Made by a program: the position numbers and the translations under genes
In this document: positions 16,361 through 34,346 of the stretch, one piece after another
How positions within the stretch are numbered: position 1 is the first letter of the stretch
Layout of the letters: every line of letters starts with the position of its first letter
Origin: an uncultured Candidatus Peregrinibacteria bacterium
GTDB taxonomy: Bacteria > Patescibacteriota > JACMRA01
DNA: 34,346 nucleotides
Assembly: GCA_937127165.1 (NCBI GenBank)
Contig: CAKZLR010000018.1
Location: 1 to 34,346, forward strand
Reading direction: 5' to 3'
The notes under the pieces: generated by a model
Databases searched by the model: none
The model's input: only the letters and a program-made list of their open reading frames with translations
Told to the model about the DNA's origin: nothing

Positions 16361-19300
16361 TTAGTTATTTAAAAAATTAATTTTGGATTGTTGTTGATCT
16401 AACTCTTGTTTTCTTTGCAAAAGTTGTTGTCGTTTTTCAGTCACCACCTCAGGGTCGGCATTTTGTACAAAATTGGGATTTTGTAATTGGTTTTGTAAAA
16501 ACTCAATTTGAGTTTCCAAGTCTTTTATAATTTTGTTAGTTCTGTTAACTTCAGTTTGCTTGTTTGGGATATAAGCTAGAATATCCAAAGAGTATTCATA
16601 ACCCTCTTTTTGAACACTATACAATCCCTGCTTTTGTTCTGGTACTATCTCGCTTCTGGTTGTTATCTGGATAAACTTACTGTATTTATTAAGCAATACT
16701 GATTGGGAATATACTTGAATTGATTTGGCAGGATCAATAGCAAACAAACCTCGAGTGGAACGGAGATCTTGAATAAATCTAATAATTGCAGCAAACTCTT
16801 CAGCTTGAACCTGACTATTAGGGTTTTTTGACCACAACTGGCGGTACTGCTCATTTCTCTCGAGAGCAAAAGCTAAAAGGCTTGTTTGGCCAAAAAATTC
16901 CGACCACAAAACTTCTGTTTCAAAAGGTATAAACGGTGAAACTGTGATGATAAATTGCTGAAATAGACTTTTTGCAAAAGCAACCTGTGTTTCGTCTGTT
17001 TTTAGATACTCAATATACCAATCAGCAAAATTGTCCCACAAAAAGCCATACAAAACATCAACCGAGTGAGCTAGTTCGTAGTTTTGTAGATTATGCTCTA
17101 AGTTATCTTGTAAATCTAAATATTTTTGCAAAATCCACCACGAAGCGGAGGCTAGTGATTCTGGTGATAAAAATATTTCGTTTGATACTGGGTTTGTTTT
17201 TAAGAAGGTAGATTTAGGTTTTTCTAGAGCTGTTGTAACTTTTTCTTGCCAATTTCCACTTTTGAATTCTAAAAAACGAGCAACATTCCAAATTTTATTA
17301 CCAAAGTTCCGGTATTTCTCCATTAAACGATCGGCTAAATTACCACCAAATCGCATATTTCTTCCCGGAATCATACCACTCAGCATTGATAGTCTAAGGG
17401 AGTCACTAGAAAATTTAGCGATAGCTTCTCCGGGCTCTAAACCATTTTTCAAAGACTTACTCATTTTACGACCTTTTTCATCCAAAATAGTAGGAGTAAT
17501 TACTAGATTTTCAAAGGGAACACGATTAGTAAAATATTTACCCAAAGTGATCATTCTAACTATCCATAAATAAAAAATCTCTTTGGCCGTAACCATGGTT
17601 TGGGTTGGGTAAAATTCTTCAAAATCAACTTTTTTAGCCAAATTTTGTTCCATTAGTTGGTTGTTAAACTCAGTTCTAAAATTAGTAGAAAATTTGTTTA
17701 GCACAAACTCAATACTTTCTTCAAATCCATTAATTATTTTGCCTTTAACATCTTTTAAATCGACCCACTTAGTAGTTTGATAATCCGCGCAAACACCCTC
17801 TTTTTCGGACTCAGTTTCTACATAGAAAAGATTAGATTCAAGTCGAATGTTTTGCAATTCGTTATTTTTGTAAAAATTGAATCCAAGAAAAATTTTACCT
17901 ACAAAATCCAACTTAGTTATTTCGTTCCTACTTATACCGGTTTCTTCTTCAAATTCTCTTAAAAGGGTTTTTTGAGCAGTTTCACCAAGCTCTAACTTAC
18001 CACCAACTAAATGATATTCAGCTTTTTCTTCACTCACATTTCTGAGTATATCCCAGTTTATTTTGGGAAATAGTAGTTTTTTGGTTTTAGGATTATAAAT
18101 AATTGCATGAGCCCCAAACCGGTTTTGGAAATGCTGGTCCAAACTAATATATTTGGAAAAAGTATAAAAGTAGTTACTATATAAAATATAGTCTTCAATT
18201 TCGGGAAAATGTGGGATATTGAAATGAGCTCGATTATCAAAAATAAACCGCTTGCTGGTTGGCAACCGAGATATTATTTGATTAAATTGCTCAAACGGAA
18301 CAATCTGATCGTCGGTGGAGTGATAGACAAAAATTTGCTCACAGTTTTCTTTGATTAAATCAAGTTCGGTTTGAATCTCAAAAGTATAAGCATCAGTGCA
18401 AGCTGCCACCAAATGAAGTTGCTTCACTTTGAGAGAGTTTTCGGATAGATATTTGAGTAAAAAGTTACCACCAAGACTGTGACCAACTAAAAATAGTTCA
18501 TTTTCTGGATCAATTTGAGCAATATATTTTTCAAACCAAATCTTCCAAGCTTCATAATTGGCATTTTGTTTGTTTGGCATTTGTGGGTAAAACACTTCTA
18601 TTCCAGCACTGGAGAGTTTGGTAAACAAGTTGATTTTCCAGTCGATTTTTTGCTGGCGAATGTCTATCTCTCTTTGCTTCAGCTCCTCCAGCATTTCTTG
18701 GTCAGTTTTAAAAGCATCTCCACCACCAACTATTACTACAGTTTTTTGAGGTTTAACTGTTTCCACGAAATCCAAAGTAGATAGCGGCCAAAGCGAGGAT
18801 GAAAACCAAGTATCTAAAATTTTGCTTTCTTGTACCCAGTTTCCAGGTAAATCAGGCTTATTTGGACTAACTTGGAATTTGTGCCTAATTTCAGGATTTT
18901 TCAACCACTCTTGATAACTAAAAAATTTTTTTTCTGGATTGGTGTCTAAATTATACCACACAGGAATTTTATGACCCCAGGTAAGATCTCGAGAAATACA
19001 CCAATCAAGAACATTTTGGATAAAATTTTGACCTCTTTGTCTAAATTCACTAGGATAAAAATTAACCTCATCTAAACCTTTAAGGGTTAGTTTTTGTAAG
19101 TTGGTTTTTTTGCTAAACAACTTGTGAATATCCTCAAACTTGTCCAGAATTTGACTTTCTGGTAGTATTTCAAGTAATTTATCTTTACCTGCCCAGCCCC
19201 AGCTGCAACCAATAATTTTGGTTTTGTCCATAAAGTTCTGTAATTCAATCACATCATCTTTAGTGTCAGTAAAATAGTAAACTTGTGTGGGAGATATACC

Positions 19301-19924
19301 CCAATCTTTACAAACTTGAGTGATTTTTTCCTCCTTGGAGTGGTTATCCTCTCTACCTAAAATGTGAGTGAAGTTTAACTTACAATTTCTGATTTTCGGT
19401 AAAATTAACAACTCTTTTGAAGAACTAGAAACAATTGCAAGTCTTGTGTTTGAGATTTTAGCAATTTCGTTAACGAACCCTTCAAATAGACAAAACTCTT
19501 TATTAGCCATGTACCTTATAAAATTCCAACTGGCAACAGCCTGCTGTTCAAACTCTTCTTGGCTCAGTCCATGATTTTTATGATGTCTGGGTTTATCAAA
19601 ATATTCATCTCTCATTTCCTTAGCTTTTTTGTAGTCACCACCGGCTCTCAGCTCAGCCCAACAAGCTAAATTAGCTTCGTCGGAATCGGCTAGTACTCCG
19701 TCATAATCAAAAATTAAATACTTAGTTTCTGCACACGAAGAATGATCAAACTCTTTGTGGTAGCTGAGAAAAAATTCATCACTAATCAACGGTTCAATAA
19801 CTGTTTTGGATCTTTCACAAATAGACACATTATGTTCATAGTTCCAGTCCACTTGGAATTGTGTAAACCGTTCTTTTAATTCAGAAACCCTTTTTTGATA
19901 GTCTGCCTCGCTAAAGTTATTCAT
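16361..19924 (-). CDS. valS: Valine--tRNA ligase, C-terminal half only, with inserted HAD, alpha/beta-hydrolase and Nudix domains
   Basis: HNVSICERSKTVIEPLIS, DWCISRDLTWGHKIPVWY, LDTWFSSSLWP, FYPT, KMSKS, NKIWN, anticodon domain, C-terminal coiled coil (LQNPNFVQNA); no HIGH motif or CP1 editing core. Confidence 0.88.
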   Translation of the reverse strand: MNNFSEADYQKRVSELKERFTQFQVDWNYEHNVSICERSKTVIEPLISDEFFLSYHKEFDHSSCAETKYLIFDYDGVLADSDEANLACWAELRAGGDYKKAKEMRDEYFDKPRHHKNHGLSQEEFEQQAVASWNFIRYMANKEFCLFEGFVNEIAKISNTRLAIVSSSSKELLILPKIRNCKLNFTHILGREDNHSKEEKITQVCKDWGISPTQVYYFTDTKDDVIELQNFMDKTKIIGCSWGWAGKDKLLEILPESQILDKFEDIHKLFSKKTNLQKLTLKGLDEVNFYPSEFRQRGQNFIQNVLDWCISRDLTWGHKIPVWYNLDTNPEKKFFSYQEWLKNPEIRHKFQVSPNKPDLPGNWVQESKILDTWFSSSLWPLSTLDFVETVKPQKTVVIVGGGDAFKTDQEMLEELKQREIDIRQQKIDWKINLFTKLSSAGIEVFYPQMPNKQNANYEAWKIWFEKYIAQIDPENELFLVGHSLGGNFLLKYLSENSLKVKQLHLVAACTDAYTFEIQTELDLIKENCEQIFVYHSTDDQIVPFEQFNQIISRLPTSKRFIFDNRAHFNIPHFPEIEDYILYSNYFYTFSKYISLDQHFQNRFGAHAIIYNPKTKKLLFPKINWDILRNVSEEKAEYHLVGGKLELGETAQKTLLREFEEETGISRNEITKLDFVGKIFLGFNFYKNNELQNIRLESNLFYVETESEKEGVCADYQTTKWVDLKDVKGKIINGFEESIEFVLNKFSTNFRTEFNNQLMEQNLAKKVDFEEFYPTQTMVTAKEIFYLWIVRMITLGKYFTNRVPFENLVITPTILDEKGRKMSKSLKNGLEPGEAIAKFSSDSLRLSMLSGMIPGRNMRFGGNLADRLMEKYRNFGNKIWNVARFLEFKSGNWQEKVTTALEKPKSTFLKTNPVSNEIFLSPESLASASWWILQKYLDLQDNLEHNLQNYELAHSVDVLYGFLWDNFADWYIEYLKTDETQVAFAKSLFQQFIITVSPFIPFETEVLWSEFFGQTSLLAFALERNEQYRQLWSKNPNSQVQAEEFAAIIRFIQDLRSTRGLFAIDPAKSIQVYSQSVLLNKYSKFIQITTRSEIVPEQKQGLYSVQKEGYEYSLDILAYIPNKQTEVNRTNKIIKDLETQIEFLQNQLQNPNFVQNADPEVVTEKRQQLLQRKQELDQQQSKINFLNN

Positions 19925-20133
19925 AGTAATGAAATTACTAATAATAGTTTCTGCTTAAACCAAATAGTTTTGTCAAACGTTAAGTTACAATCGACTATCT
20001 GAATAATTAAAATGACTTGAAAAGGATTGCAAACTGAGATATCTTATGGTGGAGTATTTATTTATAATTAATTTTCTTAGAACTTTCTTTTTCTATGTTT
20101 TATAGAAAATTTATAATTTATAAAATTATAAAA

Positions 20134-20634
20134 TTAAGCAAAGACAACCTCGTTTTTAGTTTGGAAAAAATTATGAAAATACTCTTCTGTCCAATCCAAA
20201 ATATCTAAATAAAAACTTAAATACGGATCAAATTCATAAATTTTGTAGTAATGATTCTTAATCATCCATTGGATGACCCGGTAATCGTACTGAGACAGTA
20301 CATTTTGACTAAATTCTTTACTATATATTTCTAATTTCTTCTCTCTGAATTTTAGTGTTAGAAAGGCTTTCTTTTGTTCCCAACTAGCGAATTTTTCTTC
20401 TGGGTTTGCAGGGTCAAATTTTTCTCGTTCATAAACAAATTGAGGATCCATTTTTTGGTTGAAAAAATAAAGTGGGTGGAGTAATCTATGCAAAGTTCTA
20501 CCAAAAAAATAGGAATACCCCTTATAATCTTTATTTCTTTTTTTAGCTTCTTCGTATTGTATCCAAGTAATCGTTGATATATACTCATACATGTCAATAT
20601 ATTGCTCTTTCAAGGATAAAAAATGTTTTGACAT
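20134..20634 (-). CDS. Hypothetical protein (aromatic-rich, 166 aa)
   Basis: Open 166-aa frame with ATG, co-oriented with grpE and valS-C; no recognisable motif. Confidence 0.6.
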   Translation of the reverse strand: MSKHFLSLKEQYIDMYEYISTITWIQYEEAKKRNKDYKGYSYFFGRTLHRLLHPLYFFNQKMDPQFVYEREKFDPANPEEKFASWEQKKAFLTLKFREKKLEIYSKEFSQNVLSQYDYRVIQWMIKNHYYKIYEFDPYLSFYLDILDWTEEYFHNFFQTKNEVVFA

Positions 20635-20702
20635 AAATTCTGCCTAAAACTGGATTTTAGTCGAGATACGTAATTATCAAATTTTTTTATTTTTGACAAC
20701 TA

Positions 20703-21353
20703 CTAAAAAGTAATTACTGCTGGCTTGATTACTTGACCGTCTACTTTTACTCCGGCGCTTACTACTCCTTTAACTGTTGGAATAGAGGTGTCACCAGACA
20801 GTTCGTTGACGGCATTCATGAACTCTGGATTAAAGGTATCTCCTGGATTTGGAATGATAATTTCAATATTAAATTTTTGCAGAACTTTAAGACTTGTATC
20901 TAAACTATTTTTTAACCTATCAACAAAATCTTTGACCGCCGTTTCACTAGCTTCAGGAGCATAACTGAAAGCTAAGTTCATATGACTAACAAAATCAGCT
21001 AAACTTAAAGCAATTTCTTTTTTAACCGACTTTTTTGCTCTATCTACGTCCATCTCGTTTTGTTTCATCACATTTTGCATATCAGCTAGAAGCCGTAAAT
21101 TTTTAGCTTTAAGCTCTTCTATTTCCTTTTTTAAGGTATCTTGCTCTGCAGATAATTTCTGAACTATATCATCTTGAGTTTGGGCTTGAATTTGGCTATC
21201 ATTAGAGGCAGAATCATTATCTGAGACTTTAGTAGGAACTGACGAAGGAACTGACGAGTTAGTTTCTTCTTTTTGAGTATCATCTAATTTTGAAAGGTTT
21301 TTATTTTTAAAATCTTGAATTTTTTGGTCAGCATTTTGCTTTTTTTTAGGCAT
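20703..21353 (-). CDS. grpE: Nucleotide exchange factor GrpE
   Basis: Disordered N-terminus, LRLLADMQN, GDTFNPEFMNAV, G.KVDGQVIKPAVI. Confidence 0.9.
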   Translation of the reverse strand: MPKKKQNADQKIQDFKNKNLSKLDDTQKEETNSSVPSSVPTKVSDNDSASNDSQIQAQTQDDIVQKLSAEQDTLKKEIEELKAKNLRLLADMQNVMKQNEMDVDRAKKSVKKEIALSLADFVSHMNLAFSYAPEASETAVKDFVDRLKNSLDTSLKVLQKFNIEIIIPNPGDTFNPEFMNAVNELSGDTSIPTVKGVVSAGVKVDGQVIKPAVITF

Positions 21354-21450
21354 AGATTTAATCTAAAAATTGATGAACTTAATTTCAAATTAAGAATGAT
21401 TTTCTTAAATAGATGATTTTTGTCAACCTAAAATTTTGTTTGCTAAAATT

Positions 21451-22770
21451 TTAAGATTCGACTTGGCTAATCAAAATTTTATTGATTTCAGGGAAGTCGG
21501 CAAGTCTTTGTTCACAGTTATTTATAAAGTGACTGGCAAAGTCGAGAATAGTTTGTTTTGAACGATAATTTTTGGTCAGGGTAATAATTTGGCATGTTGG
21601 ATATTTTTTTCTGAAATCTAAAATATTTTTTAAATAAGCTCCTTGAAATTTAAAAATTGACTGGTCATCATCTCCGACTACCATCAAGTTCGGTCTATTA
21701 TTAGTTAGTTTTGTGTCAACTAACATGTCAATAAGTTTAGTCTGCACACCACTAGTGTCTTGAAATTCGTCAACCAAAATATATAAAAACTGTTCTTGAT
21801 AATTGTATCTAAGCTCTTTGTAAGTTTCAAAAGCTTTTAACACTTCAAAAAGCATATCCTCAAAATCAAATAATTTAGACTGGTGCAAACCTTCTTGATA
21901 CTTTTTATAAATTCTAGCTAAAGAGCGGTATTTTTTATGGTTAAGGTCGGCTTTTAACCTATATTTTTTGTCTTCATCAACTTTACAAAAACTGTTTCTC
22001 CATGAAGTTAATTTAGTTGTTGAAGGATTTTGTTGAGCTTCAATTTCGTCCACAGTCTTTTGCAAACTCTCTATTACTAGTTTTTTAAGGCTATAATTTG
22101 GCTGTTTTTCGTCAAAGTTAATCTGTCTCAGGGGTTCAATCAAGTCTTGGCGAGCTTTTGATAGTAAAACTTTATTTATTTTCCCAACAAAAAAGTCTTT
22201 GATAATATTTCTAGCCTGAGAAATAAAAGTTTCGTTGTCGTCCAAAATTTGTTCAAAATCTTCGGGGGTTATACCTTCTTTTTTTAGATCCCTAATTCTA
22301 GATCTGATAGAGTCTAAATAAGTCCAACCTTCTTTAGAATTGTGTTGGTTGAGAGGATCATCATGGTCAAAAGTATTAAAAATACTTTGCAAAATTTCAA
22401 TTGAAGCTAAGTCATCAGCCGGCATATACTTAGCTCCGGAAAAAAAATATTCGGGGTTATGACTAATCACTTCGGTTCCAAAACTATGAAAAGTGTGAAT
22501 ATACACTTTGCTAGCCTGTGATCCAATAATCTTGATTAATCTTTCTCTCATATTTACAGCCGCTGAGTCTGTGAAAGTAAGACAAAGAATAGACTCTGGC
22601 AAAGTATCTGTTTCCCTGAGAATGTTGGCTACTCTCATGCTAAGTAATTCTGTTTTACCTGTCCCCGGACCAGCTACGACCATCACTGGACCATCGATTG
22701 TGTCAACGGCTTGTCTTTGTTCCGAGTTAAGCCGTTGATATTTTTGCCAGAAAATTCGGTTAAAATTCAT
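21451..22770 (-). CDS. UvrD/PcrA/Rep-family helicase, N-terminal half only (motifs Q to IV)
   Basis: LNSEQRQAV, AGPGTGKT, LTFT, TFHSF, DEFQD, VGDDDQSIFKFQGA, LTKNYRS; stops about 35 aa after motif IV, motifs V and VI absent. Confidence 0.88.
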   Translation of the reverse strand: MNFNRIFWQKYQRLNSEQRQAVDTIDGPVMVVAGPGTGKTELLSMRVANILRETDTLPESILCLTFTDSAAVNMRERLIKIIGSQASKVYIHTFHSFGTEVISHNPEYFFSGAKYMPADDLASIEILQSIFNTFDHDDPLNQHNSKEGWTYLDSIRSRIRDLKKEGITPEDFEQILDDNETFISQARNIIKDFFVGKINKVLLSKARQDLIEPLRQINFDEKQPNYSLKKLVIESLQKTVDEIEAQQNPSTTKLTSWRNSFCKVDEDKKYRLKADLNHKKYRSLARIYKKYQEGLHQSKLFDFEDMLFEVLKAFETYKELRYNYQEQFLYILVDEFQDTSGVQTKLIDMLVDTKLTNNRPNLMVVGDDDQSIFKFQGAYLKNILDFRKKYPTCQIITLTKNYRSKQTILDFASHFINNCEQRLADFPEINKILISQVES

Positions 22771-22788
22771 ACTTTAATTTATATGACT

Positions 22789-22817
22789 ATGCTACAAATA
22801 GTAAATCAGTCAGTCAA
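22789..22817 (-). promoter_or_regulatory. Sigma70-type promoter for the helicase gene
   Basis: Minus strand TTGACT-17 nt-TAGCAT, 18 nt before the ATG at 22770. Confidence 0.6.
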
Positions 22818-23201
22818 GACAAAGTCAAACACTATCCATTAAGATCAAATCAAGATTGATTTGATATTTGGTCTGGTTATGTACTAATTTGATTTCTAAA
22901 GAAAAACTGGTGTAATAAACTTGTTTATTCAAAATTTATTTAATTTTTACAAGTTTTACTTGTTACTTACAAGTTTTATTTAAAACTACAACAATAACAA
23001 TTGTTACCAATTTAATCAAAAAAAATTTTCTAATTTAATTCTTGTCAATTTTTAAAAAAATACTAGGTCCGGGTCTTACTTACTATTCTCACTATTTTTT
23101 GTGAGAACTTAATAAAAGACGATTTTTAAATTTTAAAATATATAATTATATAATATGAAAACTCTTCAGAGTTGTATTTGAAATTATAAAAACATTTATT
23201 C

Positions 23202-23870
23202 CTATTTACAACTAACATAACTCATAGACACTCTGTTAGATCGTGTAATCATAAAAAAATGATTTCAGCAATATCCTTAGGATGCATAAACTTTGAAGTA
23301 TCAATTTTTGTTTGATTATCTAGGTTTTTAAATAAATTTGTATTTGTAGTTGCAGGATAAAAACCCATTACACGAATATTGATTCTTTTTTCCAACCTTC
23401 CCTGAAACCAGATATTCCGTATTTATTACTCATATAAACAGACTCTCTTGGCTTACCATCATATGGTGTTCTACCGGCTGAAGATACATTAAGGATTGTA
23501 CCATAATTTTGTTCTTTGAAAGTTGGCAAAAATACTTGTGTCGTGTATATAGTACCCATTAGATTTATTCTAATCATTTTTTCTATATGATCAGGATTTT
23601 GTTTGTCTAGATCACCAGTGTAATACACACCCGCATTATTTATCAAAACATCAACATTACCAATTTCCTTACGAGCACTTTCTAATATCGGATAGAGGCG
23701 ATCAGCTTCATATTCTAAATTGTATTCTATATTTTTAAGATTTGGATGTGTTATATTAACAGTATTTCTGCTAAGATTAAAGACTAGCCACTGCCTTTTT
23801 AAACACTTTTTTACAACTTCTAGTCCAATTCCAGAACTACCCCCAGTGATAACAATTCTTTTAAAGAAGA
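23202..23870 (-). pseudogene. Short-chain dehydrogenase/reductase (SDR) pseudogene
   Basis: One frame reads KRIVITGGSSGIG...DVLINNAG...YMSNK but has no ATG/GTG/TTG upstream of the Rossmann motif; continues after a frameshift near 23385 (IRVMGFYPATTNTNLF...MHPKDIAEII) and a second shift at the homopolymer near 23255. Confidence 0.85.
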
Positions 23871-24033
23871 AATTTACTAAAAATAGTGCAAAAGCACATG
23901 CATGAAGAATAAAAATAAAATGGTCAAATAAATCATTCTGAGTTGTAATAACAATTTAAAATATATTATAACTTTCACAAATATTATTTCATTTATTAAG
24001 TATTGTTTATTATATAATCCTGTTAATAACAGG

Positions 24034-24067
24034 AAATTTTAAATATGAAAAAATTTTAAATATGAAA
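24034..24067. repeat. 17-bp tandem duplication AAATTTTAAATATGAAA x2
   Basis: 24034-24050 is identical to 24051-24067. Confidence 0.8.
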
Positions 24068-24389
24068 AATATATATTTTTGTCTTTTAATTACATTATTA
24101 TACTAGTTACCTTTAGATTTATTTCTCCTGCTTTTGTTACGTTACAAATGATTCCCCTAAAAGACTAAAACTTTGACTAAGAAGATTTATTTTTACAGAT
24201 GCTCTTTTATAATTTGTTCATCATACAAACCTCGAAGAAATTAGTGCTATTTGTCATAATAAATACAATTTGATTCAATATTTTATACATCTAACAGAAA
24301 AATGTTAAACTAACAAAGTTGAACAATAGATCTGAAAGACCTCTTTTGCAAGATTAAAATAAAAAGTATTATTTTAGATATATAAACAT

Positions 24390-24418
24390 TTGACCTAAAA
24401 GCAGTCTTTTAGTAAAAT
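24390..24418 (+). promoter_or_regulatory. Sigma70-type promoter for the PilB/GspE gene (near-leaderless)
   Basis: TTGACC-17 nt-TAAAAT, 10 nt before the ATG at 24429. Confidence 0.65.
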
Positions 24419-24428
24419 GTAATGTTGT

Positions 24429-26132: not shown

Positions 26133-26400
26133 AAGAGTACTTGATTAGTTTTTAACTTTAAGATTTTAACTCTTTGAGAATCTATAATTGCAGAAGCAGT
26201 AATTGTTTTATAACATATAACCTCTTCTGTAGTTACAAAATTATCTATAGTTTTTCTTGATTTTTGATTCAAAGAAAATAATTTTTACAGAAACAAAAAC
26301 ATAAAATTTAATTTGTGAATGGGGAATTTAACAAAAAAGTTTTTCTAAAAAAAGATTAGGAACGAACAACTTTGTTCTAAATATTAAGGTTTAGCTTGAT

Positions 26401-27603
26401 TTAGCTCAAAATTACTTCTAATGTCTGACAGACTTTGTCTACATGTTCTTTTTGGATAATCAAGGGTGGTAAAAATCTGATAGTATCTTTACTACAAGGC
26501 AAAGCAATAATCTTACGCTGTTGTAATTTTTTGAGAATATCCATAGGGTCTATGGTTTCTAATAATTGTACTCCAATCATAAAACCTTCTCCCCTTATAT
26601 CAACGATTTTATCATTTAGCTTTGTTTGTAAATTTCTTAGCTGTTCAAAAAAATATTTACTGATAACTCGGCTTTTGTCTATAATCTGTGATTTTTCTAA
26701 TTCATCTAAAAAAGCTACTACTCCAGTCATACTTAAAGGATTTCCTCCTGTGGTAGAAGTGTGCACACCTTTAGGGATTTTGGCATTTAACTCTTCTTTA
26801 ATAACTACAGCCGATACTGGCAAACCACCACCAAGACCCTTGCCAAACAAAATCATATCACAATCAAAACCTCCTGGTACATATTTTTGAACATTCAGAA
26901 ACCGACCGTTGCGACCTAAACCAGTTTGAATTTCGTCAATAATTAACAACACCCCATATTCTTTGCACAATTCACTTACTTGCACTAGGTAATCTTCTGG
27001 TGGAAGGATAATTCCACCTTCTGCTTGAATTGGTTCGATAATAAGAGCAGCATGTTGGTTGGAAATAGTTTTTTTTAGTGATTCAATGTTGCCAAACTCA
27101 AAATAATCTGTAGAGAGTAGAAATTTTTGAAAGGGTTTTTGATATTTGCCTTCGTTGCTACTAGTTACAGAAAGCACTGCCAAAGTTTTGCCATGATAGT
27201 CATTTCTAGGAGACAAAAGACGGTTGCGACCGGTAGCAATTAAAGCAAACTTAATAGCGGCATCTACTGCCTCTGCTCCATAATTTGCCCAAAGTATACG
27301 ATTAAAGCCAGTCAATCCGACTTTTTCAACTTGTTCTAAAAGTTTTTTAGTTGCTTGACTTCGCTGAGGGTTGCCAAAAGAACCATGGCAGTTAATTAGA
27401 ATATCAACCTGTTTTTTGATACCTTCTGTAACTGGACTTGGACCATAACCTAGAAGGTTAACACCAAAATTAGAACCCATATCTAGGTATTCTTCACCTT
27501 TTTCATCATAAAGATAAACCCCATTACCACTAGCCAAAGACAAACCACGATTAGGAAAGGTGGAGACAACATTTTTGGACTGGATTATATCCGTAATAGT
27601 CAT
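26401..27603 (-). CDS. Class III PLP-dependent aminotransferase (ArgD/LysJ-like)
   Basis: YLD, GAEAVDAAIK, YHGKT, EPIQAEGG, DEIQTGLGR, GKGLGGG, HTSTTGGNPL, IRFLPPL. Confidence 0.9.
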   Translation of the reverse strand: MTITDIIQSKNVVSTFPNRGLSLASGNGVYLYDEKGEEYLDMGSNFGVNLLGYGPSPVTEGIKKQVDILINCHGSFGNPQRSQATKKLLEQVEKVGLTGFNRILWANYGAEAVDAAIKFALIATGRNRLLSPRNDYHGKTLAVLSVTSSNEGKYQKPFQKFLLSTDYFEFGNIESLKKTISNQHAALIIEPIQAEGGIILPPEDYLVQVSELCKEYGVLLIIDEIQTGLGRNGRFLNVQKYVPGGFDCDMILFGKGLGGGLPVSAVVIKEELNAKIPKGVHTSTTGGNPLSMTGVVAFLDELEKSQIIDKSRVISKYFFEQLRNLQTKLNDKIVDIRGEGFMIGVQLLETIDPMDILKKLQQRKIIALPCSKDTIRFLPPLIIQKEHVDKVCQTLEVILS

Positions 27604-27815
27604 TAAATTTTTTTAGTATCTTTTAATTAGTACTTTTAGTAATTTATAACCAACGTTAATTTTCGTTACTTGTGCTCAAATGCAAACTAAACAAATAAAA
27701 AACAAAATCTACCTTTCCTAATTGTATTAACAATTCTTCACTTTTATCTAAAAAACAACATTGAACAACTGATTTACTCACACTTAAAACCTCTTTAAAT
27801 TTGTTGAATCTAACA

Positions 27816-28208
27816 TTAACTTAAATTAAACAAAGTTCCGTCGTAAATTCTTTCTATCAGACCGCTAAGCAAGGCAACAATCAAGAAGGAAAGAGCCGCA
27901 ATAGTCAGGCCAATTAGTGCATTTTTGATTATTTTCCAACCATTATCTGAATCCCCAGTAGCTAGTTTAAATGCCCCCCAGATAATAAATAAAAGAGTAA
28001 TACCAGGTATAATAAAAACTGCTAATTGAGCGATAGACACTAAAAATTCGTACATGTTTTCTCTAGTGAGATTTAACGTAATCCCTCCCCCGGGAAGTTC
28101 TGGTGCAGTTATTTGAGCATTAATTGATATAGGTAGTAAAATCAAGGCAAAAGAAAATATGCTTGTTGCATATAGGTAGAACTTTTTGGATCTAATAAGT
28201 TTGAGCAT
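27816..28208 (-). CDS. CPR-type (TrbC/VirB2-like) pilin-like protein
   Basis: Signal peptide ending INA-Q, then two TM helices with the IIWGAFK...IKNALIGL.I...SFLIV pattern common in Patescibacteria pilin-like proteins. Confidence 0.7.
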   Translation of the reverse strand: MLKLIRSKKFYLYATSIFSFALILLPISINAQITAPELPGGGITLNLTRENMYEFLVSIAQLAVFIIPGITLLFIIWGAFKLATGDSDNGWKIIKNALIGLTIAALSFLIVALLSGLIERIYDGTLFNLS

Positions 28209-28538
28209 AAAACAACAGGATTGGTAATAAAATTAATTAGTTAAATCGAGGTTGAATTAACATATTTTTCGTAAAATAGCAAGTGAGTTTTTTATTGTAA
28301 ACAAAACAAATCGGTTCCATCCAGCTAAGTAACTTAGTGAATAAACTTAATATTTATTAAGCTAAATTCATAATTAAAACTTGTCAAATGTCCATTTTGG
28401 ATGTCTTTACTAGGACTTAATATGAAATTATAGATTGCCGTAATTAGACAGTAAAGAAAAGAATATTGTTTTGTTTAATCACTAAATTAGGAATAAAACT
28501 GTTCTTTATATATAATCTTAACCAACCAACAAAAAAAT

Positions 28539-29804
28539 TTACACAAAAATTTCTAAATTTTGAATTTTTTTGTCTTTACTAACAACTAAGACTTTTCTGG
28601 ATTGCAAGCCTTGCTTAATGTGATTGTAGAGATTTTTTATTGATTCTTGGTCTACACTTTCTAGCCTTTGGCTGTAGTCTTCATATTGCTCAACTAAACC
28701 GAAATTGAGCATTCTGTTTTCAGCAAAATCTACAAAAAATTTTGGGTTATCTGTAGATATATCTTTTTGTTTTCTAATTTTATTTTTCATCTGCTCAAAT
28801 TTTTCTGGTTTGAAGTTTTTTTCAAAATCGCCAAAAGTTTTGTATATTTCTTCTAAAATTTGTTTAATATGTCTTATCTCACAAGCTAATTCAATTTCTA
28901 AAGATTGGATAGTCTGCCTAAACCTTCCCGAAATGCCATATACTAAACCCAACTCATCTCTTAAACGGTCATACAAAATACCTCCATATTTTAGATATAA
29001 TTGCTCAAAAACTGCTTGAGATGGTCTATTTTTAAAATTTACCGAACAGGGAATAAACACTGTTACTTCGGCATGCTCATGTCCTAGTGGGTGAGTGTAA
29101 GGCAAATTAGTAAACTCTTTGAAGGTGTCATTTGGTAAAAAACCTAATTTTTGGAAAGGTTCGGTAGGTAAATTTGCTGTTTGTTTTATTTTTTGAGAAA
29201 CTTTAGCCACCACAGTATCCACCTCAAAACCACCACCACTAAATTTGAGAATTAAGTGACTATTATTTAAAATTTGGTTATGAAGTCTATAAAAATCCTC
29301 CAAAGTGGTGCTACTTACATCTTCCACCAACCCTATTACTTGATTATTGATTAAGGAGTCTTCTGTAAAAATCTGTTTTAAAGTATCGTAATATAAAATA
29401 TAGTTAGGGTCTCCTGTTCTTTCGCTGATTTCTCTTAAAACTATTTCTTTTTCCCTATCCAGGTCTTCTCGACGAAAGGAAGGATTGAAAAAAAATTCAG
29501 CTAATAAGTCAAAAATTTTATCAAAGTCATCTTTGTGACCACTAGCGACAAGGGACATTGTTAGATTGCTGGTGTAAGCGTTCAAGTCTATTTCGTTAGC
29601 AAAACAGTAGTCTTTGACTTCTGCAAAGTTCATTGTTTGAGTGCTAGAAACTAAGCAGTGTTCAAGCAGATGTCGCTTTCCTTTATCTCCTGTTTGCTCA
29701 AACCAACTACCGCCACTAGAGTAGGTAAATTCTAAATCAATTCTATTGCGATCGGCTGGTTGTAACAACAAATGAACACCTTTTGTGAGTTGAATGTATT
29801 GCAT
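28539..29804 (-). CDS. M16 (insulinase/pitrilysin) family zinc peptidase
   Basis: Inverted zinc motif HLLEH, NAYTS, REKEIVLREI, LYDRLRDELGLVY. Confidence 0.9.
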   Translation of the reverse strand: MQYIQLTKGVHLLLQPADRNRIDLEFTYSSGGSWFEQTGDKGKRHLLEHCLVSSTQTMNFAEVKDYCFANEIDLNAYTSNLTMSLVASGHKDDFDKIFDLLAEFFFNPSFRREDLDREKEIVLREISERTGDPNYILYYDTLKQIFTEDSLINNQVIGLVEDVSSTTLEDFYRLHNQILNNSHLILKFSGGGFEVDTVVAKVSQKIKQTANLPTEPFQKLGFLPNDTFKEFTNLPYTHPLGHEHAEVTVFIPCSVNFKNRPSQAVFEQLYLKYGGILYDRLRDELGLVYGISGRFRQTIQSLEIELACEIRHIKQILEEIYKTFGDFEKNFKPEKFEQMKNKIRKQKDISTDNPKFFVDFAENRMLNFGLVEQYEDYSQRLESVDQESIKNLYNHIKQGLQSRKVLVVSKDKKIQNLEIFV

Positions 29805-30002
29805 ACTGTTTGGAACAAGAACACCAAAATTGAAAATTTTCTTATTTAGCTAGCGTTTATTGCTATATAATCAGCTATACAATCACAAGTCAATCTAATC
29901 TTCAAAAATCGTTTACAATTGCTAATGTCAAAGCGGTAATTACTTTTCAACTCTAATCAAAACACATCCACAATTTTCAATTTTCCGATAAAAAACCAAA
30001 GA

Positions 30003-30230
30003 CTAAGCCAGATAAAGAGAGATTATTCTGACTATCACAAACACCACGATAAAGAACACAGTCAAGCCAACTACCCATCTTTCAATTCCCCTTCTAGTAA
30101 TGTAAATTTGGTCGCTACCGCCAAAAGTTCCAGACAGACCAGCGCCCCTATTTTGTATCAAAATCAAAATTGATGCTAGCACCAAACAAACTACTTCAAT
30201 AGTAATTAATATATTTTCCAAATTATTCAT
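30003..30230 (-). CDS. secG: Preprotein translocase subunit SecG
   Basis: Two TM helices flanking ILIQNRGAGLSGTFGG...TRRGIE. Confidence 0.92.
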   Translation of the reverse strand: MNNLENILITIEVVCLVLASILILIQNRGAGLSGTFGGSDQIYITRRGIERWVVGLTVFFIVVFVIVRIISLYLA

Positions 30231-30239
30231 AAAACTTTT

Positions 30240-30764
30240 TTATCTGGTATAATTGTTTAAATAAGTTTCGACCTCTTTTTCGGCTTCTTCTTTACCAAAG
30301 ACACCCTGAATCTGGACAACCTTGTTTTGAAGTCTTTTGTAATTTTGGAAAAAGTCCAGAATCTCGTCAATTCGATGTTTTGGAAGTTGAGAAATATCGA
30401 TTACATCCTTAAACCTTGGATCACCGGTAGGAACAGCCAAAATCACATTATCTTGGTCACCTGAATCAATTTTTTTTACTATACCGATCGCTCTAGCTTT
30501 GAGAACTGTCATCGGAGGAACAGGATTAGTTAATAATACTGCTACATCTAAAGCATCTCCATCTTCAGTTTTAGTCGACGGAATAAAGCCGTAGCTAAAC
30601 GGATAAAACTCGGCAGAAAACAAAACTCTATCAAGCATCAAAGCTCCAGTTTCTGGATCTAATTCGTATTTGTTTTGACTACCATATGGAATTTCTATGA
30701 CTACATTAAACTCTTGCACTTCTCCAGAAGGCAAAAAGTATAAATTTTGAGCAGATACAGACAT
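30240..30764 (-). CDS. ppa: Inorganic pyrophosphatase (family I)
   Basis: VIEIP, KYE, DRVL, YP.SYGFIPST, DGDALD, DPRF, FFQNYK; ATG 30764 preferred over the upstream TTG/GTG. Confidence 0.93.
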   Translation of the reverse strand: MSVSAQNLYFLPSGEVQEFNVVIEIPYGSQNKYELDPETGALMLDRVLFSAEFYPFSYGFIPSTKTEDGDALDVAVLLTNPVPPMTVLKARAIGIVKKIDSGDQDNVILAVPTGDPRFKDVIDISQLPKHRIDEILDFFQNYKRLQNKVVQIQGVFGKEEAEKEVETYLNNYTR

Positions 30765-31409
30765 CACCAAAACAATTTAGTTGTTAACTACTAAAAAGTA
30801 AACTGCTGAAAACTAGACTAATGTGTTGAATTCTGTCAAGCGAATGGTGTTTTTGTATACCACCTCTTAGAAAAATTTCCAGTTTTCTAAATTGAAACCA
30901 AAGCAACTAAAATCAATCAAACAAGAAAATACCAAAACTACTACTGTTTTTGCGTGACGTCTGATGAGTAATTTATTAGAACTTAAAGTTTAATAATAGG
31001 TTCTTCAGGTTTCTTTTTATTAAGAGGTATAGGAAAAGTACGAGATGTTGATTTTGTACCTGGGATTTGAGTAGGTGTTGATTTTTCAAGAGCTGTTTAC
31101 GTGTTTAGAGTTAAGTAGAAGTTATTTCTGTACCTATCTGTCAGTTTCATCATTCAATGGAAAAGGTAGTTTGAAAAGTTCATTACCACTTTTAGTTTTT
31201 TCAATTTTTCTGGTATAGACACAAAATTTTAAATTTACAAAAACTAGATGAAAGTACGACAAAATACGACAAAAAAAGAATAGTTAAATCATTTTGGCTA
31301 ATAATCTTGACAAGAGAAAATTTTGGTGGTGAGATACGCTAGGTTGTCGCTAGTTTAGTTATATATTTATACATTTTGTAACTACAGTAACTACAGTATC
31401 TAACTATAA

Positions 31410-31610
31410 GTAATTTGATAAAAGATAAAACAAGATAAAATAAAAAAAATAAATAATAAATAATAAAATAATAATAAAACATAAATAATAAAACATAAAT
31501 AATAACAAACATAATAAACAAATTAATAATTAATGGTAATAATTAATTAATGATTAAGTTAATAATTAATAATTTGATTTTATAATTGTTATAACTTTTA
31601 ACTTTTAATT
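31410..31610. repeat. Low-complexity A/T tract (AAATA/AAACAT-like units, then AATTAAT units)
   Basis: About 200 bp with very few G/C; strongly A-biased in the first half. Confidence 0.7.
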
Positions 31611-31620
31611 TCTGTTGCAT

Positions 31621-34346
31621 ATGAACCAAGACTCAAACCAAAATAATCAAGTTGACAATATTGAGACTCAATCTACCCATCCTTATAAGGATATCGAGAC
31701 TTATTGGCAGAAACTTTGGTTTGAAAATAACCTTTACCGGGCCGTTGATTTTGATGATCGTCCTAAAAAATATATTTTAACCGAATTTCCTTACCCATCG
31801 GGTGTTAGTTTGCATATTGGTCATGTTTTTCGTTATACAGTACCGGATGTATACGCTAGGTTTTTAAGAATGAATGGTTATAACGTGCTTTTTCCGATGG
31901 GTTGGGATGCTTTTGGTTTACCCACTGAGGAGCGAGCTAGGAAGGAAGGCAAGAATCCCAAGATCATCACTAAAGAAAACATTGCTAACTTTAAGCAACA
32001 AGTTCTGCGAATGGGTTATGGTTTTGACTGGGACAGAGAGTTTTCTACAACTGATGAAAATTATTACAAGTGGACTCAGTGGATTTTTGGCGAGTTTTAT
32101 AAAGCTGGTTTAGCCGAACAAAAAGAAACTGAAGTGTGGTGGTGTCCTGAAATGGGGACTGTGTTGTCTAACGAAGAGGTGTTAGATGGTCCAAATGGAA
32201 CCAAAATTAGTGAACGAGGTGAGTATCCGGTTTATCGCAAAAAGATGAAGCAGTGGGTTTTGAGGATGCCAGAATATGCCGAAAAATTACTTAGCGGTCT
32301 AGAAGAAACTCATTTTCCAGAACATGTTAAGGAGATGCAACGAAATTGGATTGGTAAAAGCGAAGGTTGCACGGTCAGATGGGAAGTAGAAACAACTACA
32401 AAAAGCAGAAAGCAGAAAGCAAAAATTGTAATTTTACACGGTTTTCGAGGTAGTTCCCAGAGTATTTATATTCCTTGGCTTAAATCTAGGTTAGAAGACT
32501 TTGGTTGTGAAGTAGTGGCTTTGGATTTGCCTAATTTTACAGATCCAGACGAACAAGAATGTGTTGATTTCGTTTTAAACTCAGTTAAATTTGGCAACAA
32601 CACAATCATTTTAGGTCATAGTCTTGGTTCTGTACTAGCCCTCAAAGTTTTAGAAAAACTAGATCAGCCGATTTTAGGTTTGGTTACCACTGGCGGCTTT
32701 GTGTCTCCAGACTTTTTGGACAAAAACATCAATGTGCGGCCGTTTACCCATAAGTGGAATTGGAATTTTGACTTTGCAAAAATCAAGGCGAATACCACTT
32801 TTGTTAAGTGTTTGCAATCTTCTTCTGATCCAGTTATTTCTACCGCTCAAGCTCAGGCTTTGGTGCAAGCTGTGGAAGGCGAGCTGATAATTGTGGAAGC
32901 TAAAGGACATTTTAGTGATCAGATTGAACCTAGTGTTTGGAGTGTCTTTGAGCAAGTTTTACGAAAGGAAGCACTCCACCTTACAAGCATCTCTCAAGAG
33001 GAAAGTTTGATAGTTGAAACCTTTACTACCCGAGTTGATACCATCTTTGCGGTTACTTTTTTGGTGTTGTCTCCCGAGCATCCTTTGGTTTTACAACTAA
33101 CTATCGAGGAAAACTTACCAAAGGTACGAGTTTATTTGCAAGAAGTGCAAAACAAAAGTGACCGAGAAAGACAAATTGGGGCTGAAAAAACTGGAGTCTT
33201 TACCGGGAGTTATGCTATTAATCCAATTACAAAAGATAAAGTGCCAATTTGGATTAGTGATTATGTACTTGGCAGTTACGGTACTGGAGCGATTATGGCG
33301 GTTCCGGGGCACGATGAGCGAGATTTTGAGTTTGCCCAAAAGTTTGGGCTGAAAATTTTAGAAAACGTAAAACCCATAAGTGGAGAAAAAACTAGCAAAG
33401 TTTTTACTGATTACGGCGTTTTATTTAACTCAGGAGAGTATTCCGGTTTAACCAGTGAGGAGGCTAAAGAAAAATTAATCCAAAAATTGGAAGCTGAAGG
33501 CAGAGGTAAGCGAGAAATCAATTATAAATTCCGTGATTGGGTCTTTAGCCGTCAGCGATATTGGGGTGAGCCATTTCCGTTTGAGTATATTAAGATTAAA
33601 GATGGTTTAGTAGATTTTGAGAAACTAGACGAACAACTAAAAAACTCAGGTCGGATTGGTGTCGTTAACTGTGTTGTTGTTAATTCCCAAGGTCAAATTT
33701 TGCTTCAAAGGAGATCGGCGACTTTTGACTTGATTGGCGGGCATATAGGGGAAGGTGAAACTATTTCGCAGGCGATGCAACGAAAGATTAAAGAAGAGAT
33801 TGGTTGTGATCTAGGTCAAGTTTTGTATTATTTAGGCTTTACTGAAATGAATCTTAGTGAGGATAATAAAAAACTGAATTTTGTTTTTATAGTTACAGTT
33901 AAACATGAGCCAAAGATTCAAAAACCAGAAAAAGTTAGTGAGATGATGTGGGTCAAGGCTGACCAGATTTTAAATTTTGTTGTTCCTCAGTCTCAATATA
34001 CAGTTTATTTTCCTAGCTGGCAACAAAAAGATTTTGTGAAAGAATTTATAGCACAAAATAGAGATTCTTATATTGTTGATGTTTTGTCACAGGCTTTTGA
34101 TTGGATAAACAAAAATTTTTCGGGGTTATCTTTGACCGAAATTGACGGCGAGCTCCATAAGATCAGACTTCTTGATACTACTGAACTACCTTTAATTTTG
34201 CCGGATGTAGAAGACTATTTGCCGTCACCAGAAGGCCGATCTCCTCTTGGCAAGGTAGATTGGATAAACATTCGAGATGAGCAGGGTAGGGTGATTGGTC
34301 GACGAGAACCAGACACCATGCCTAACTGGGCTGGAAGTAGTTGGTA
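31621..34346 (+). CDS. leuS: Leucine--tRNA ligase, runs off the window end, with inserted alpha/beta-hydrolase and Nudix domains
   Basis: Not in the ORF track (no stop in window). Manual translation: FPYPSGVSLHIGH, PMGWDAFGLP, YYKWTQWIF, MQRNWIGKSEG, FTTRVDTIF, YGTGAIMAVPGHDERD, RDWVFSRQRYWGEP, REPDTMPNWAGSSW. Confidence 0.97.
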   Translation, partial: MNQDSNQNNQVDNIETQSTHPYKDIETYWQKLWFENNLYRAVDFDDRPKKYILTEFPYPSGVSLHIGHVFRYTVPDVYARFLRMNGYNVLFPMGWDAFGLPTEERARKEGKNPKIITKENIANFKQQVLRMGYGFDWDREFSTTDENYYKWTQWIFGEFYKAGLAEQKETEVWWCPEMGTVLSNEEVLDGPNGTKISERGEYPVYRKKMKQWVLRMPEYAEKLLSGLEETHFPEHVKEMQRNWIGKSEGCTVRWEVETTTKSRKQKAKIVILHGFRGSSQSIYIPWLKSRLEDFGCEVVALDLPNFTDPDEQECVDFVLNSVKFGNNTIILGHSLGSVLALKVLEKLDQPILGLVTTGGFVSPDFLDKNINVRPFTHKWNWNFDFAKIKANTTFVKCLQSSSDPVISTAQAQALVQAVEGELIIVEAKGHFSDQIEPSVWSVFEQVLRKEALHLTSISQEESLIVETFTTRVDTIFAVTFLVLSPEHPLVLQLTIEENLPKVRVYLQEVQNKSDRERQIGAEKTGVFTGSYAINPITKDKVPIWISDYVLGSYGTGAIMAVPGHDERDFEFAQKFGLKILENVKPISGEKTSKVFTDYGVLFNSGEYSGLTSEEAKEKLIQKLEAEGRGKREINYKFRDWVFSRQRYWGEPFPFEYIKIKDGLVDFEKLDEQLKNSGRIGVVNCVVVNSQGQILLQRRSATFDLIGGHIGEGETISQAMQRKIKEEIGCDLGQVLYYLGFTEMNLSEDNKKLNFVFIVTVKHEPKIQKPEKVSEMMWVKADQILNFVVPQSQYTVYFPSWQQKDFVKEFIAQNRDSYIVDVLSQAFDWINKNFSGLSLTEIDGELHKIRLLDTTELPLILPDVEDYLPSPEGRSPLGKVDWINIRDEQGRVIGRREPDTMPNWAGSSW

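Follow-up and report, generated by a model that had tools for sequence, protein, structure and literature searches.

How does a small, usually free-standing enzyme come to lie inside an essential gene, and does it serve its host once it is there? The question is raised by contig CAKZLR010000018.1 (C18) of assembly GCA_937127165.1, from an uncultured Candidatus Peregrinibacteria bacterium; we refer to the whole 34,346-nucleotide stretch as the window. It belongs to a 0.94-Mb draft genome (G000) of 68 contigs with an estimated completeness of 84% and a GC content of ~32%. Two of its genes, which encode the class Ia valyl- and leucyl-tRNA synthetases (ValRS and LeuRS), contain complete domains of other enzymes. 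We regard both products as chimeric multi-enzyme proteins, in which a working class Ia core carries small enzymes in tolerant surface loops. The best reading of their origin, towards which we lean by a modest amount, is a lineage-wide process of repeated gene fission, capture of small genes between the resulting pieces, and re-fusion.

The ValRS frame of the window (positions 16361..19924, minus strand; 1187 residues plus stop) has Pfam matches to tRNA-synt_1, Anticodon_1 and Val_tRNA-synt_C and begins just past the editing domain. A genome scan with PF00133 located the N-terminal part as a separate 387-residue gene on contig C28, which carries the HAGH signature and the editing-domain motifs and corresponds to canonical residues 1-386 with nothing extra. 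Because the N-terminal half sits on C28, we describe ValRS as a split gene with three enzymes nested in its C-terminal piece. The two parts lie on different contigs, each amid other, unrelated genes, and the signature set of the enzyme (HIGH-type motif, KMSKS, editing domain, anticodon-binding domain and coiled coil) is complete across the two; G000 has no ValRS encoded as a single polypeptide. The two pieces are predicted to assemble non-covalently.

Read from its N-terminus, the C-terminal piece opens with the strand that follows the editing domain (segment c1, 19745..19924, minus strand like all ValRS features, residues 1-60), which matches c1 of the unsplit ValRS of relatives. It is followed by a nested HAD-type phosphatase module (19109..19744, residues 61-272), in which HAD_2 matches residues 70-226 with 41.7 bits against a cut-off of 23.8 and motif I, DYDGV, has the DxD form. 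This third insert was overlooked by the original prediction, a note made on the DNA letters without database searches; no solved structure matched it by sequence at E<=0.01. After catalytic-core segment c2 (18749..19108, residues 273-392; Pfam tRNA-synt_1 at 261-391) comes a loop with two enzymes. The first is a YdeN/RBBP9-type serine hydrolase, type V (18170..18748, residues 393-585), and directly after it stands a Nudix module (17639..18169, residues 586-762; NUDIX at 603-726, 41.3 bits) with a canonical box (GX5EX7REUXEEXGU). The host then resumes with core segment c3, which contains KMSKS (17210..17638, residues 763-905), and ends with the anticodon-binding domain and C-terminal coiled coil (16364..17209, residues 906-1187; Anticodon_1 at 930-1071, Val_tRNA-synt_C at 1124-1177). 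We call the position between c1 and c2 site 1 and that between c2 and c3 site 2. The alpha/beta-hydrolase match (Ser_hydrolase, at about residues 436-569) lies near its Pfam cut-off of 22 bits, with 18.6 bits in the whole protein and 22.3 bits in the genome scan. The module has its Ser, Asp and His residues, matches RBBP9, its closest solved structure, at 1.4e-5, and covers the full length of free-standing proteins of ~190-200 residues. A protein-library representative of 1193 residues (P0009), 57% identical, has the same start point and the same HAD-hydrolase-Nudix order, which argues that the ValRS arrangement is conserved and is not an accident of assembly. Identity to P0009 is 46-68% over the cargo segments and 53-83% over the host segments.

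LeuRS is encoded at the other end of the window (31615..34344, plus strand; likely true start ATG 31621; Pfam tRNA-synt_1) and runs off the contig end after 910 residues. Its HIGH motif can be read, and its CP1 editing domain (33001..33594, residues 463-660) is matched by tRNA-synt_1_2 at residues 464-626 (5.6e-59; LeuRS-type PF13603, 199 bits). The hairpin that leads into the editing domain, site A, holds a YdeN/RBBP9-type serine hydrolase, type L (32389..33000, residues 259-462; Ser_hydrolase at 271-440, 38.8 bits), with its catalytic triad present and a match to YdeN at 7e-14. Site B, after the editing domain, holds a Nudix module (33595..34014, residues 661-800; NUDIX at 683-788, 67.9 bits). 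Despite this score its box is deviant, with RK for RE and 8 residues deleted relative to the canonical box of P0004, a full-length relative of 1222 residues that has the same two inserts and is 83% identical over the hydrolase insert. P0004 also has the KMSKS motif and the anticodon-binding domain; the window gene ends at the contig edge before them, and the C-terminal remainder was not found in the G000 assembly.

Pfam and the translations thus bear out the claim that first drew attention to the locus, namely that ValRS and LeuRS each contain a GHSLG hydrolase of RBBP9/YdeN-like type (closest solved structures RBBP9 for the ValRS insert and YdeN for the LeuRS insert) and a Nudix domain. The sites are non-equivalent as stated, since in LeuRS the hydrolase precedes and the Nudix domain follows the editing domain and in ValRS both occupy one downstream loop. 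The inserts are also clearly different in sequence: phmmer at E<0.01 links neither the two hydrolases nor the two Nudix domains, and the two hydrolases belong to separate subfamilies on a tree. The class II ThrRS of the window (3895-5784, 629 residues), which was said to have only short loop insertions, has no such cargo domain in Pfam.

Could genes of this kind be produced by misassembly, by chimeric binning or by the decay of pseudogenes? The assembly is a fragmented and incomplete draft, the LeuRS gene is cut by a contig end and the LeuRS Nudix motif is deviant. However, the same architectures occur in independent genomes, including one that consists of a single 1.27-Mb contig (G017), and both P0009 and P0004 keep the whole frame. 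Long stop-free open reading frames (ORFs) are moreover the opposite of what sequencing errors yield. We therefore give an artefact almost no credence.

Hardly more probable is removal of the inserts from the mature enzyme, whether by intein or intron splicing or by proteolytic cleavage of a polyprotein. The split forms found in relatives suggest that the host pieces presumably work without a covalent link, which would suit such a process. Against it, Pfam scans revealed no Hint or intein family, in agreement with the original prediction that intein hallmarks are absent, and the junctions vary, with no conserved Cys, Ser or Thr nucleophile and no His-Asn. The search for conserved junction sequences that had been suggested at the outset thus came out negative for the junction residues. 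Regarding introns, no group I or group II intron was matched: at the gathering threshold, Rfam recognizes two tRNAs in the window and nothing else. Only a few codons serve as linkers, the reading frame runs on through both junctions, and the cargo has the folds of ordinary enzymes with intact active sites. In the databases searched no RNA dataset matched the ValRS stretch, and one DNA run contains 0.06 of the words of this stretch; predicted promoters and terminators around ValRS are no more numerous than in shuffled sequence.

We scanned all 64 ORFs of at least 600 residues of G000 against Pfam. Open frames of 878-1594 residues contain 4 of the 5 NUDIX matches of the genome, all 3 HAD_2 matches and both Ser_hydrolase matches, which places 9 of the 10 inside long essential genes (ValRS, LeuRS, CarB and Der). 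CarB, with 1593 residues, has a HAD-type Hydrolase domain and one or two NUDIX domains, and the GTPase Der, with 877 residues, has two HAD-type stretches between its two GTPase domains. The remaining synthetases of G000 are of ordinary length apart from three. One, of class IIb (825 residues; C51:3474-5948), has a C-terminal DUF2000 and a 176-residue N-terminal extension, a GluRS of 726 residues (C51:36581-38758) has ~250 residues (340-600) without a Pfam match, and CysRS sits in a 577-residue frame. IleRS has no such cargo by Pfam. Elsewhere in G000, a sigma-70 factor (regions 1.2-4) is C-terminally fused to TsaE in a 719-residue protein (C54:1688-3844).

In order to see how far these architectures extend, we compared G000 with 24 genomes of the same family, one from a sister family within the order and, as an outgroup, 15 from the phylum's other families (all numbered G001 upward). 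The related genomes share ancestry, so that counts across them are not independent samples. The clade is an order-level group of small-genome, CPR/Patescibacteria-like bacteria (CPR, Candidate Phyla Radiation); this label follows from the small genome, a type IV secretion system pilin family and the named relatives of cargo modules and one LeuRS. Estimated completeness is 68-93% in the 24 family genomes (86% in the single-contig G017) and 94-100% in 14 of the 15 outgroup genomes.

ValRS was mapped in 23 relatives, with insert identity assigned by Pfam; the family set of 23 ValRS genes comprises G000 and 22 relatives, G004 and G010 being left out. The enzyme is canonical and unsplit in G006 (985 residues) and in G016. 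By segment mapping, site 2 is filled in 11 of the 23 family genes and has no insert in the other 12. Its cargo is the serine hydrolase in nine genes, a Nudix domain in G002 (and in G000 besides its hydrolase) and a HAD module in G003. Site 1 holds HAD in G000 and G009, GNAT in G005, G008 and G020, and a 142-residue insert without a Pfam match in G018. A Ham1 ITPase lies in the N part of ValRS in G001 and G018, and DUF559 lies inside c2 in G023. Seventeen of the 23 family genes had legible junctions, and in these the inserts all fall within ~6 residues between two conserved motifs.

The same comparison reveals every form between an intact host and a fully nested one. Of the 24 family relatives, 15 devote a separate gene to the anticodon-binding part of ValRS. 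In G013 the gene is split into adjacent ORFs, and in G025 HAD, Nudix and Ham1 ORFs separate its three pieces. One-sided fusions, in which cargo is joined to one host piece, occur in the C-pieces of LeuRS in G007 and G012, in Der of G021 and G024, and in PNPase of G008. In ValRS of G000 the cargo is fully nested. As a separate observation, a YgjP-like metallopeptidase gene immediately follows the ValRS catalytic piece, ahead of the separate anticodon-domain gene, in G017, G011 and G022 (L085 5515-6057, L083 4277-4897 and L090 3648-4190).

LeuRS is just as variable in the family. It is canonical in G013 (831 residues), and in the other families it mostly has 815-864 residues. Site A holds the hydrolase in G000, G014 and G023, Nudix in G001 and G003, Nudix plus Ham1 in G006 and G015, three Nudix domains in G018 and DUF559 in G021. 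Site B holds Nudix in G000, G017, G022 and G025, HAD in G015 and the hydrolase in G005 and G025. The site B hydrolase begins the C-piece in G007 and G012 and forms a separate 192-residue ORF between the pieces in G018. The gene is split in G001, G004, G007, G012, G018 and G025. Outside the family, a Nudix domain interrupts the LeuRS editing domain of G038, at the point used in G018 too. The LeuRS genes of G021 and G023 are 77% identical in their N-terminal core, and the same hairpin holds DUF559 in one and the hydrolase in the other; cargo turnover must therefore be fast, since near-alike genes are differently filled at one site.

Synthetases of other classes and quite different enzymes serve as hosts as well. 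Class II ThrRS-like enzymes of relatives hold Nudix (4 genomes) or DUF559, and CysRS holds DUF559 plus P-loop kinase-like stretches. In G010, AspRS (1444 residues) contains Nudix, GNAT and Ham1, AlaRS contains guanylate kinase, Ham1 and serine hydrolase, and PepA (1495 residues) contains two GNAT, one serine hydrolase and two Nudix domains. Nudix domains lie in CarB, GatA and AdoHcyase of relatives, HAD modules lie in Der, PyrG and PNPase as well as in ValRS, LeuRS or separate ORFs, and iPGM holds DUF559. Embedded cargo is enriched in this order. Ser_hydrolase matches fall in frames of at least 350 residues in 19 of 40 cases in the order and in 0 of 9 in the 15 outgroup genomes; the corresponding figures are 12 of 26 against 0 of 3 for DUF559 and 28 of 82 against 3 of 68 for Nudix (a hand count among the matches listed, 150 of 294).

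These distributions bear on whether the cargo was recruited to serve the synthetases. The original prediction offered as one interpretation that the inserts perform quality control specific to synthetases. As stated, this does not hold: the same cargo families occupy CarB and Der of G000 and non-synthetase hosts in relatives, and the cargo at a given synthetase loop differs between genomes, an outcome that the original prediction had itself named as refuting this interpretation. A narrower form survives as a rival to fission, capture and re-fusion, as 17 of the 18 genome-host pairs with an embedded hydrolase are synthetases (ValRS in 9 genomes, LeuRS in 7 and AlaRS in 1, with PepA in 1); the synthetase share is 5 of 11 for HAD-type modules and 18 of 29 for Nudix. 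In this narrower form the hydrolase, and perhaps the Nudix domain, was selected into ValRS and LeuRS to act on their products or by-products, the hydrolase on aminoacyl esters (mischarged aminoacyl-tRNA or aminoacyl-adenylate) and the Nudix domain on Ap4A-like compounds, so that a factor acting in trans became tethered in cis. The synthetases concerned also have editing domains, site 2 of ValRS took up hydrolases of several lineages, and the embedded copies have not lost their catalytic triad. Of 13 long proteins examined from a library of 1.84 billion, 8 are synthetases and 1 is an enzyme of the CCA-adding or poly(A) polymerase type. The part of PMC8866121 available to us describes human RBBP9 as an aminopeptidase that removes N-terminal residues and requires a free alpha-amine, and a title in a reference list names it as valacyclovir-activating enzyme. 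By analogy with this aminopeptidase chemistry, activity on aminoacyl esters would be chemically plausible.

Several observations speak against such recruitment. The CP1 editing domains of both synthetases look intact, and the same loops elsewhere hold Nudix, HAD, GNAT, Ham1, DUF559 or, in 12 of 23 ValRS genes, nothing. Synthetases are the commonest hosts for other cargo types too, and Nudix or HAD modules also reside in CarB, Der, PyrG, PNPase, GatA and AdoHcyase. Furthermore, free-standing hydrolase genes, which a scan of named genome contigs found in many metagenome-assembled genomes (MAGs) of CPR and DPANN, have no conserved neighbourhood: among 55 neighbouring ORFs scanned, a Mur ligase adjoins them at 4 of 38 loci and a synthetase at only 3 of 38. 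On a Nomurabacteria MAG contig (L046 2998-4101), a free hydrolase gene is followed after 30 nucleotides by a free Nudix gene, the order of the tandem nested in the window ValRS. On balance we consider functional recruitment unlikely, about one chance among five.

As judged by its catalytic residues, which are kept, the cargo is constrained. In embedded hydrolases Ser is present in 20 of 20, His in 20 of 20 and Asp in 19 of 20 (the G024 module s2b reads E), and 11 of 12 free ones have the full triad. Of the embedded Nudix boxes found by pattern 20 of 21 are canonical, the exception being that of the window LeuRS, and motif I is present in 14 of 14 HAD modules. The whole free-standing protein, from about residue 2 to its end, is represented in the nested modules, as expected from fusion of whole genes. 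In addition, the hydrolase of a given genome tends to be either embedded or free-standing, as if a resident gene had been captured and not duplicated.

The trees of the inserts indicate that the same loop is filled several times independently. In a maximum-likelihood tree of 32 hydrolase modules there are two subfamilies, each with free-standing genes of outgroup genomes, and the starred clades mix hosts, one combining the G015 ValRS module with the LeuRS modules of G000 and G014, another the G010 PepA module with those of G009 ValRS and G023 LeuRS. Grouping all ValRS site 2 hydrolases as one clade was rejected by the approximately unbiased (AU) test with p 4.8e-68, and with p 5e-13 when one long branch was left out. 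On the tree of the ValRS core, hydrolase presence needs at least 4 changes, with weak deep nodes. The 14 HAD modules gave a comparable picture: the free ORF between the ValRS pieces of G025, the PNPase module of G008 and the ValRS module of G009 form a clade (support 100/100 and 98/94), and the ValRS module of G000 falls outside it. Comparison of insert and host phylogenies, which the original prediction had proposed, thus disposes of a single vertical origin for the ValRS hydrolase inserts, the outcome that would have counted against its second interpretation, and supports that interpretation, a process that places small enzymes in essential genes, although the tie of this process to gene fission had gone unseen.

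Repeated filling of one loop could also be the work of an active, site-specific insertion or exchange, homing-like and without splicing, that moves whole-gene cassettes whose cargo would be partly selfish passengers. Differing cargo does lie in one ~6-residue stretch with highly conserved motifs on either side, cargo exchange has occurred between close LeuRS genes, and the targets are conserved essential genes like those of inteins and homing endonucleases. DUF559, a putative endonuclease, occurs in frame in LeuRS, ValRS, iPGM, a ThrRS-like enzyme and CysRS. On the other hand, no direct or inverted repeats flank the window cargo, the only matches at its borders being short, of low identity and not in flanking positions, and no recombinase or endonuclease adjoins either window gene. 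Inserts and host do not differ in base composition, and the cargo modules are old, with 35-55% identity between genomes. Taken together, we find this explanation doubtful, somewhat more so than functional recruitment. As a homing-endonuclease driver DUF559 was rejected: its copies are 32-65% identical, which gives no sign of recent spread, and four free copies look like ordinary orthologues. The sole DUF559 match in G000 (C35:21416-21676) is decayed, with 9 in-frame stops.

We favor repeated fission, capture and re-fusion because every stage is seen in the clade and because borders at whole genes are what this route predicts. Under this proposal, a large essential gene would split at a loop that tolerates interruption, and whole small genes would come to lie between the host pieces. 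Loss of stop and start codons would then join everything into one frame, on one side first and afterwards on both, the reverse also being possible. The cargo would remain an active independent enzyme that replaces the free-standing gene, with an activity unrelated to that of its host, and the host would keep its function either as one chain or as pieces that assemble non-covalently. If tolerant loops are few, the same sites would be reused.

A number of points weigh against this proposal. That each gene is translated as a single chain and that the cargo is active are predictions from sequence, and the LeuRS Nudix domain of the window may be decaying because its box deviates. With the weak deep nodes of the ValRS tree, either fission or insertion may have come first. 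The AU-test groups were named after the tree was seen, and, as noted, related genomes are non-independent samples. Nearly all hosts of the embedded serine hydrolase are synthetases (17 of 18 pairs), and hydrolases of at least 3 lineages filled the same ValRS loop; chance acting on permissive sites fits this bias and repeated filling no better than a targeted mechanism or selection for linked function does. A cycle of fission, capture and fusion accounts neither for its high rate here nor for the synthetase bias of the hydrolase. We therefore also entertain, as an improbable candidate on a par with functional recruitment, that an undescribed active mechanism, a non-splicing counterpart of homing, exchanges enzyme genes at a few loops, with the hydrolase perhaps co-opted for proofreading of aminoacyl esters.

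Globally the nested architecture is rare. In a collection of 5.8 billion proteins, only 5 clusters of 500-1593 residues match the LeuRS hydrolase insert, and the hydrolase-Nudix tandem is matched by 1 representative of 1.84 billion. Among the best 150 library matches of the hydrolase, 138 have fewer than 400 residues, nearly all of them free-standing proteins of about 190-215 residues.

Some neighboring genes of the window deserve mention. A free-standing inorganic pyrophosphatase gene (30240-30770, minus strand) lies ~850 nucleotides upstream of LeuRS on the opposite strand. A 439-residue ORF (21451-22770, minus strand), with grpE directly following, has the N-terminal UvrD-helicase domain only; a 696-residue ORF on another contig (C58:17655-19742) has UvrD_C and PD-(D/E)XK domains, and the two may be another gene in pieces. 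The adjoining 1.6 kb (22771-24428) has no ORF of at least 100 residues; inside it, two ORFs of 92 and 48 residues (23249-23646, minus strand) resemble fragments of a short-chain dehydrogenase (NNAG motif) and are probably a pseudogene. In a 650-residue ORF (13204-15156, minus strand), ~150 positions match a ribonucleotide reductase barrel profile (1.4e-10) and the remainder has no assignment; this ORF is not ThrRS.

The nested genes have practical consequences. Annotation pipelines will mislabel or miss them (one LeuRS of the nested kind is labelled 'hypothetical protein' at source), and split, insert-laden marker genes may depress completeness estimates such as the 68-93% of this family. For protein engineering they provide a useful map of the sites at which synthetases and other essential enzymes are naturally split or interrupted. 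They also make it possible to test concretely whether the YdeN/RBBP9-type hydrolases, which are widespread in CPR and DPANN, act on aminoacyl esters.

How do these genes compare with known systems? Both hydrolase inserts match the YdeN/RBBP9 family (PF06821; PDB 1uxo and 2qs9) and keep its Ser-Asp-His triad, but known members are free-standing proteins of ~190 residues and those described here are nested. Like inteins, the inserts are in-frame insertions at conserved sites of essential genes; unlike inteins, they have no Hint fold and no splicing residues and are ordinary enzymes. Naturally split synthetases include the LeuRS of Aquifex aeolicus and the AlaRS of Nanoarchaeum equitans, each encoded by two genes whose products must assemble. 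In contrast to these, the split points here differ, and splitting is widespread, variable within one family and coupled to cargo. In the genes-in-pieces ribonucleotide reductase of phage Aeh1 a homing endonuclease gene interrupts the host (PMC3045599), and 'fractured genes' carry split inteins (PMC2677866). To the extent that the accessible portions of these sources describe them, both resemble our case in that a gene inserted into an essential one breaks it up, yet the pieces still yield a functional product; they differ in that the cargo here consists mostly of metabolic enzymes, has no split-intein sequence and is often healed into one frame. An endonuclease, which a homing-endonuclease origin of this type would lead one to expect, was not found in or beside the two window genes. 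The BEAN/HABAS lineage-specific insertions of RNA polymerase are polyphyletic domains within a large essential enzyme (PMC11515920); in the available part of that source they are non-enzymatic and specific to RNA polymerase, whereas here whole enzymes enter many hosts. In the full-text literature, supplements aside, we found no published account of enzyme inserts or split synthetases in CPR/Patescibacteria.

The closest parallel lies within the hosts themselves. The CP1 domain of class Ia synthetases is ancient, universal and functionally tied to the synthetase. Like CP1, the inserts of the window are hydrolytic domains housed in loops of the Rossmann-fold catalytic domain; the CP1-bearing hairpin is itself LeuRS site A, and the other insert sites are neighboring loops of that domain. 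Unlike CP1, the inserts are confined to a lineage, vary between genera, derive from free-standing housekeeping enzymes and are common to unrelated hosts. Proteins are known to evolve by domain insertion and by the fusion and fission of genes, routes that are usually reconstructed from isolated, ancient events. Here, dozens of events in one small clade show every stage, from intact genes through split genes, split genes with captured genes between the pieces and one-sided fusions to an enzyme fully nested in another, with the same loops reused by different cargo. As every stage is present in one clade, the route by which nested multi-domain enzymes originate becomes directly testable.

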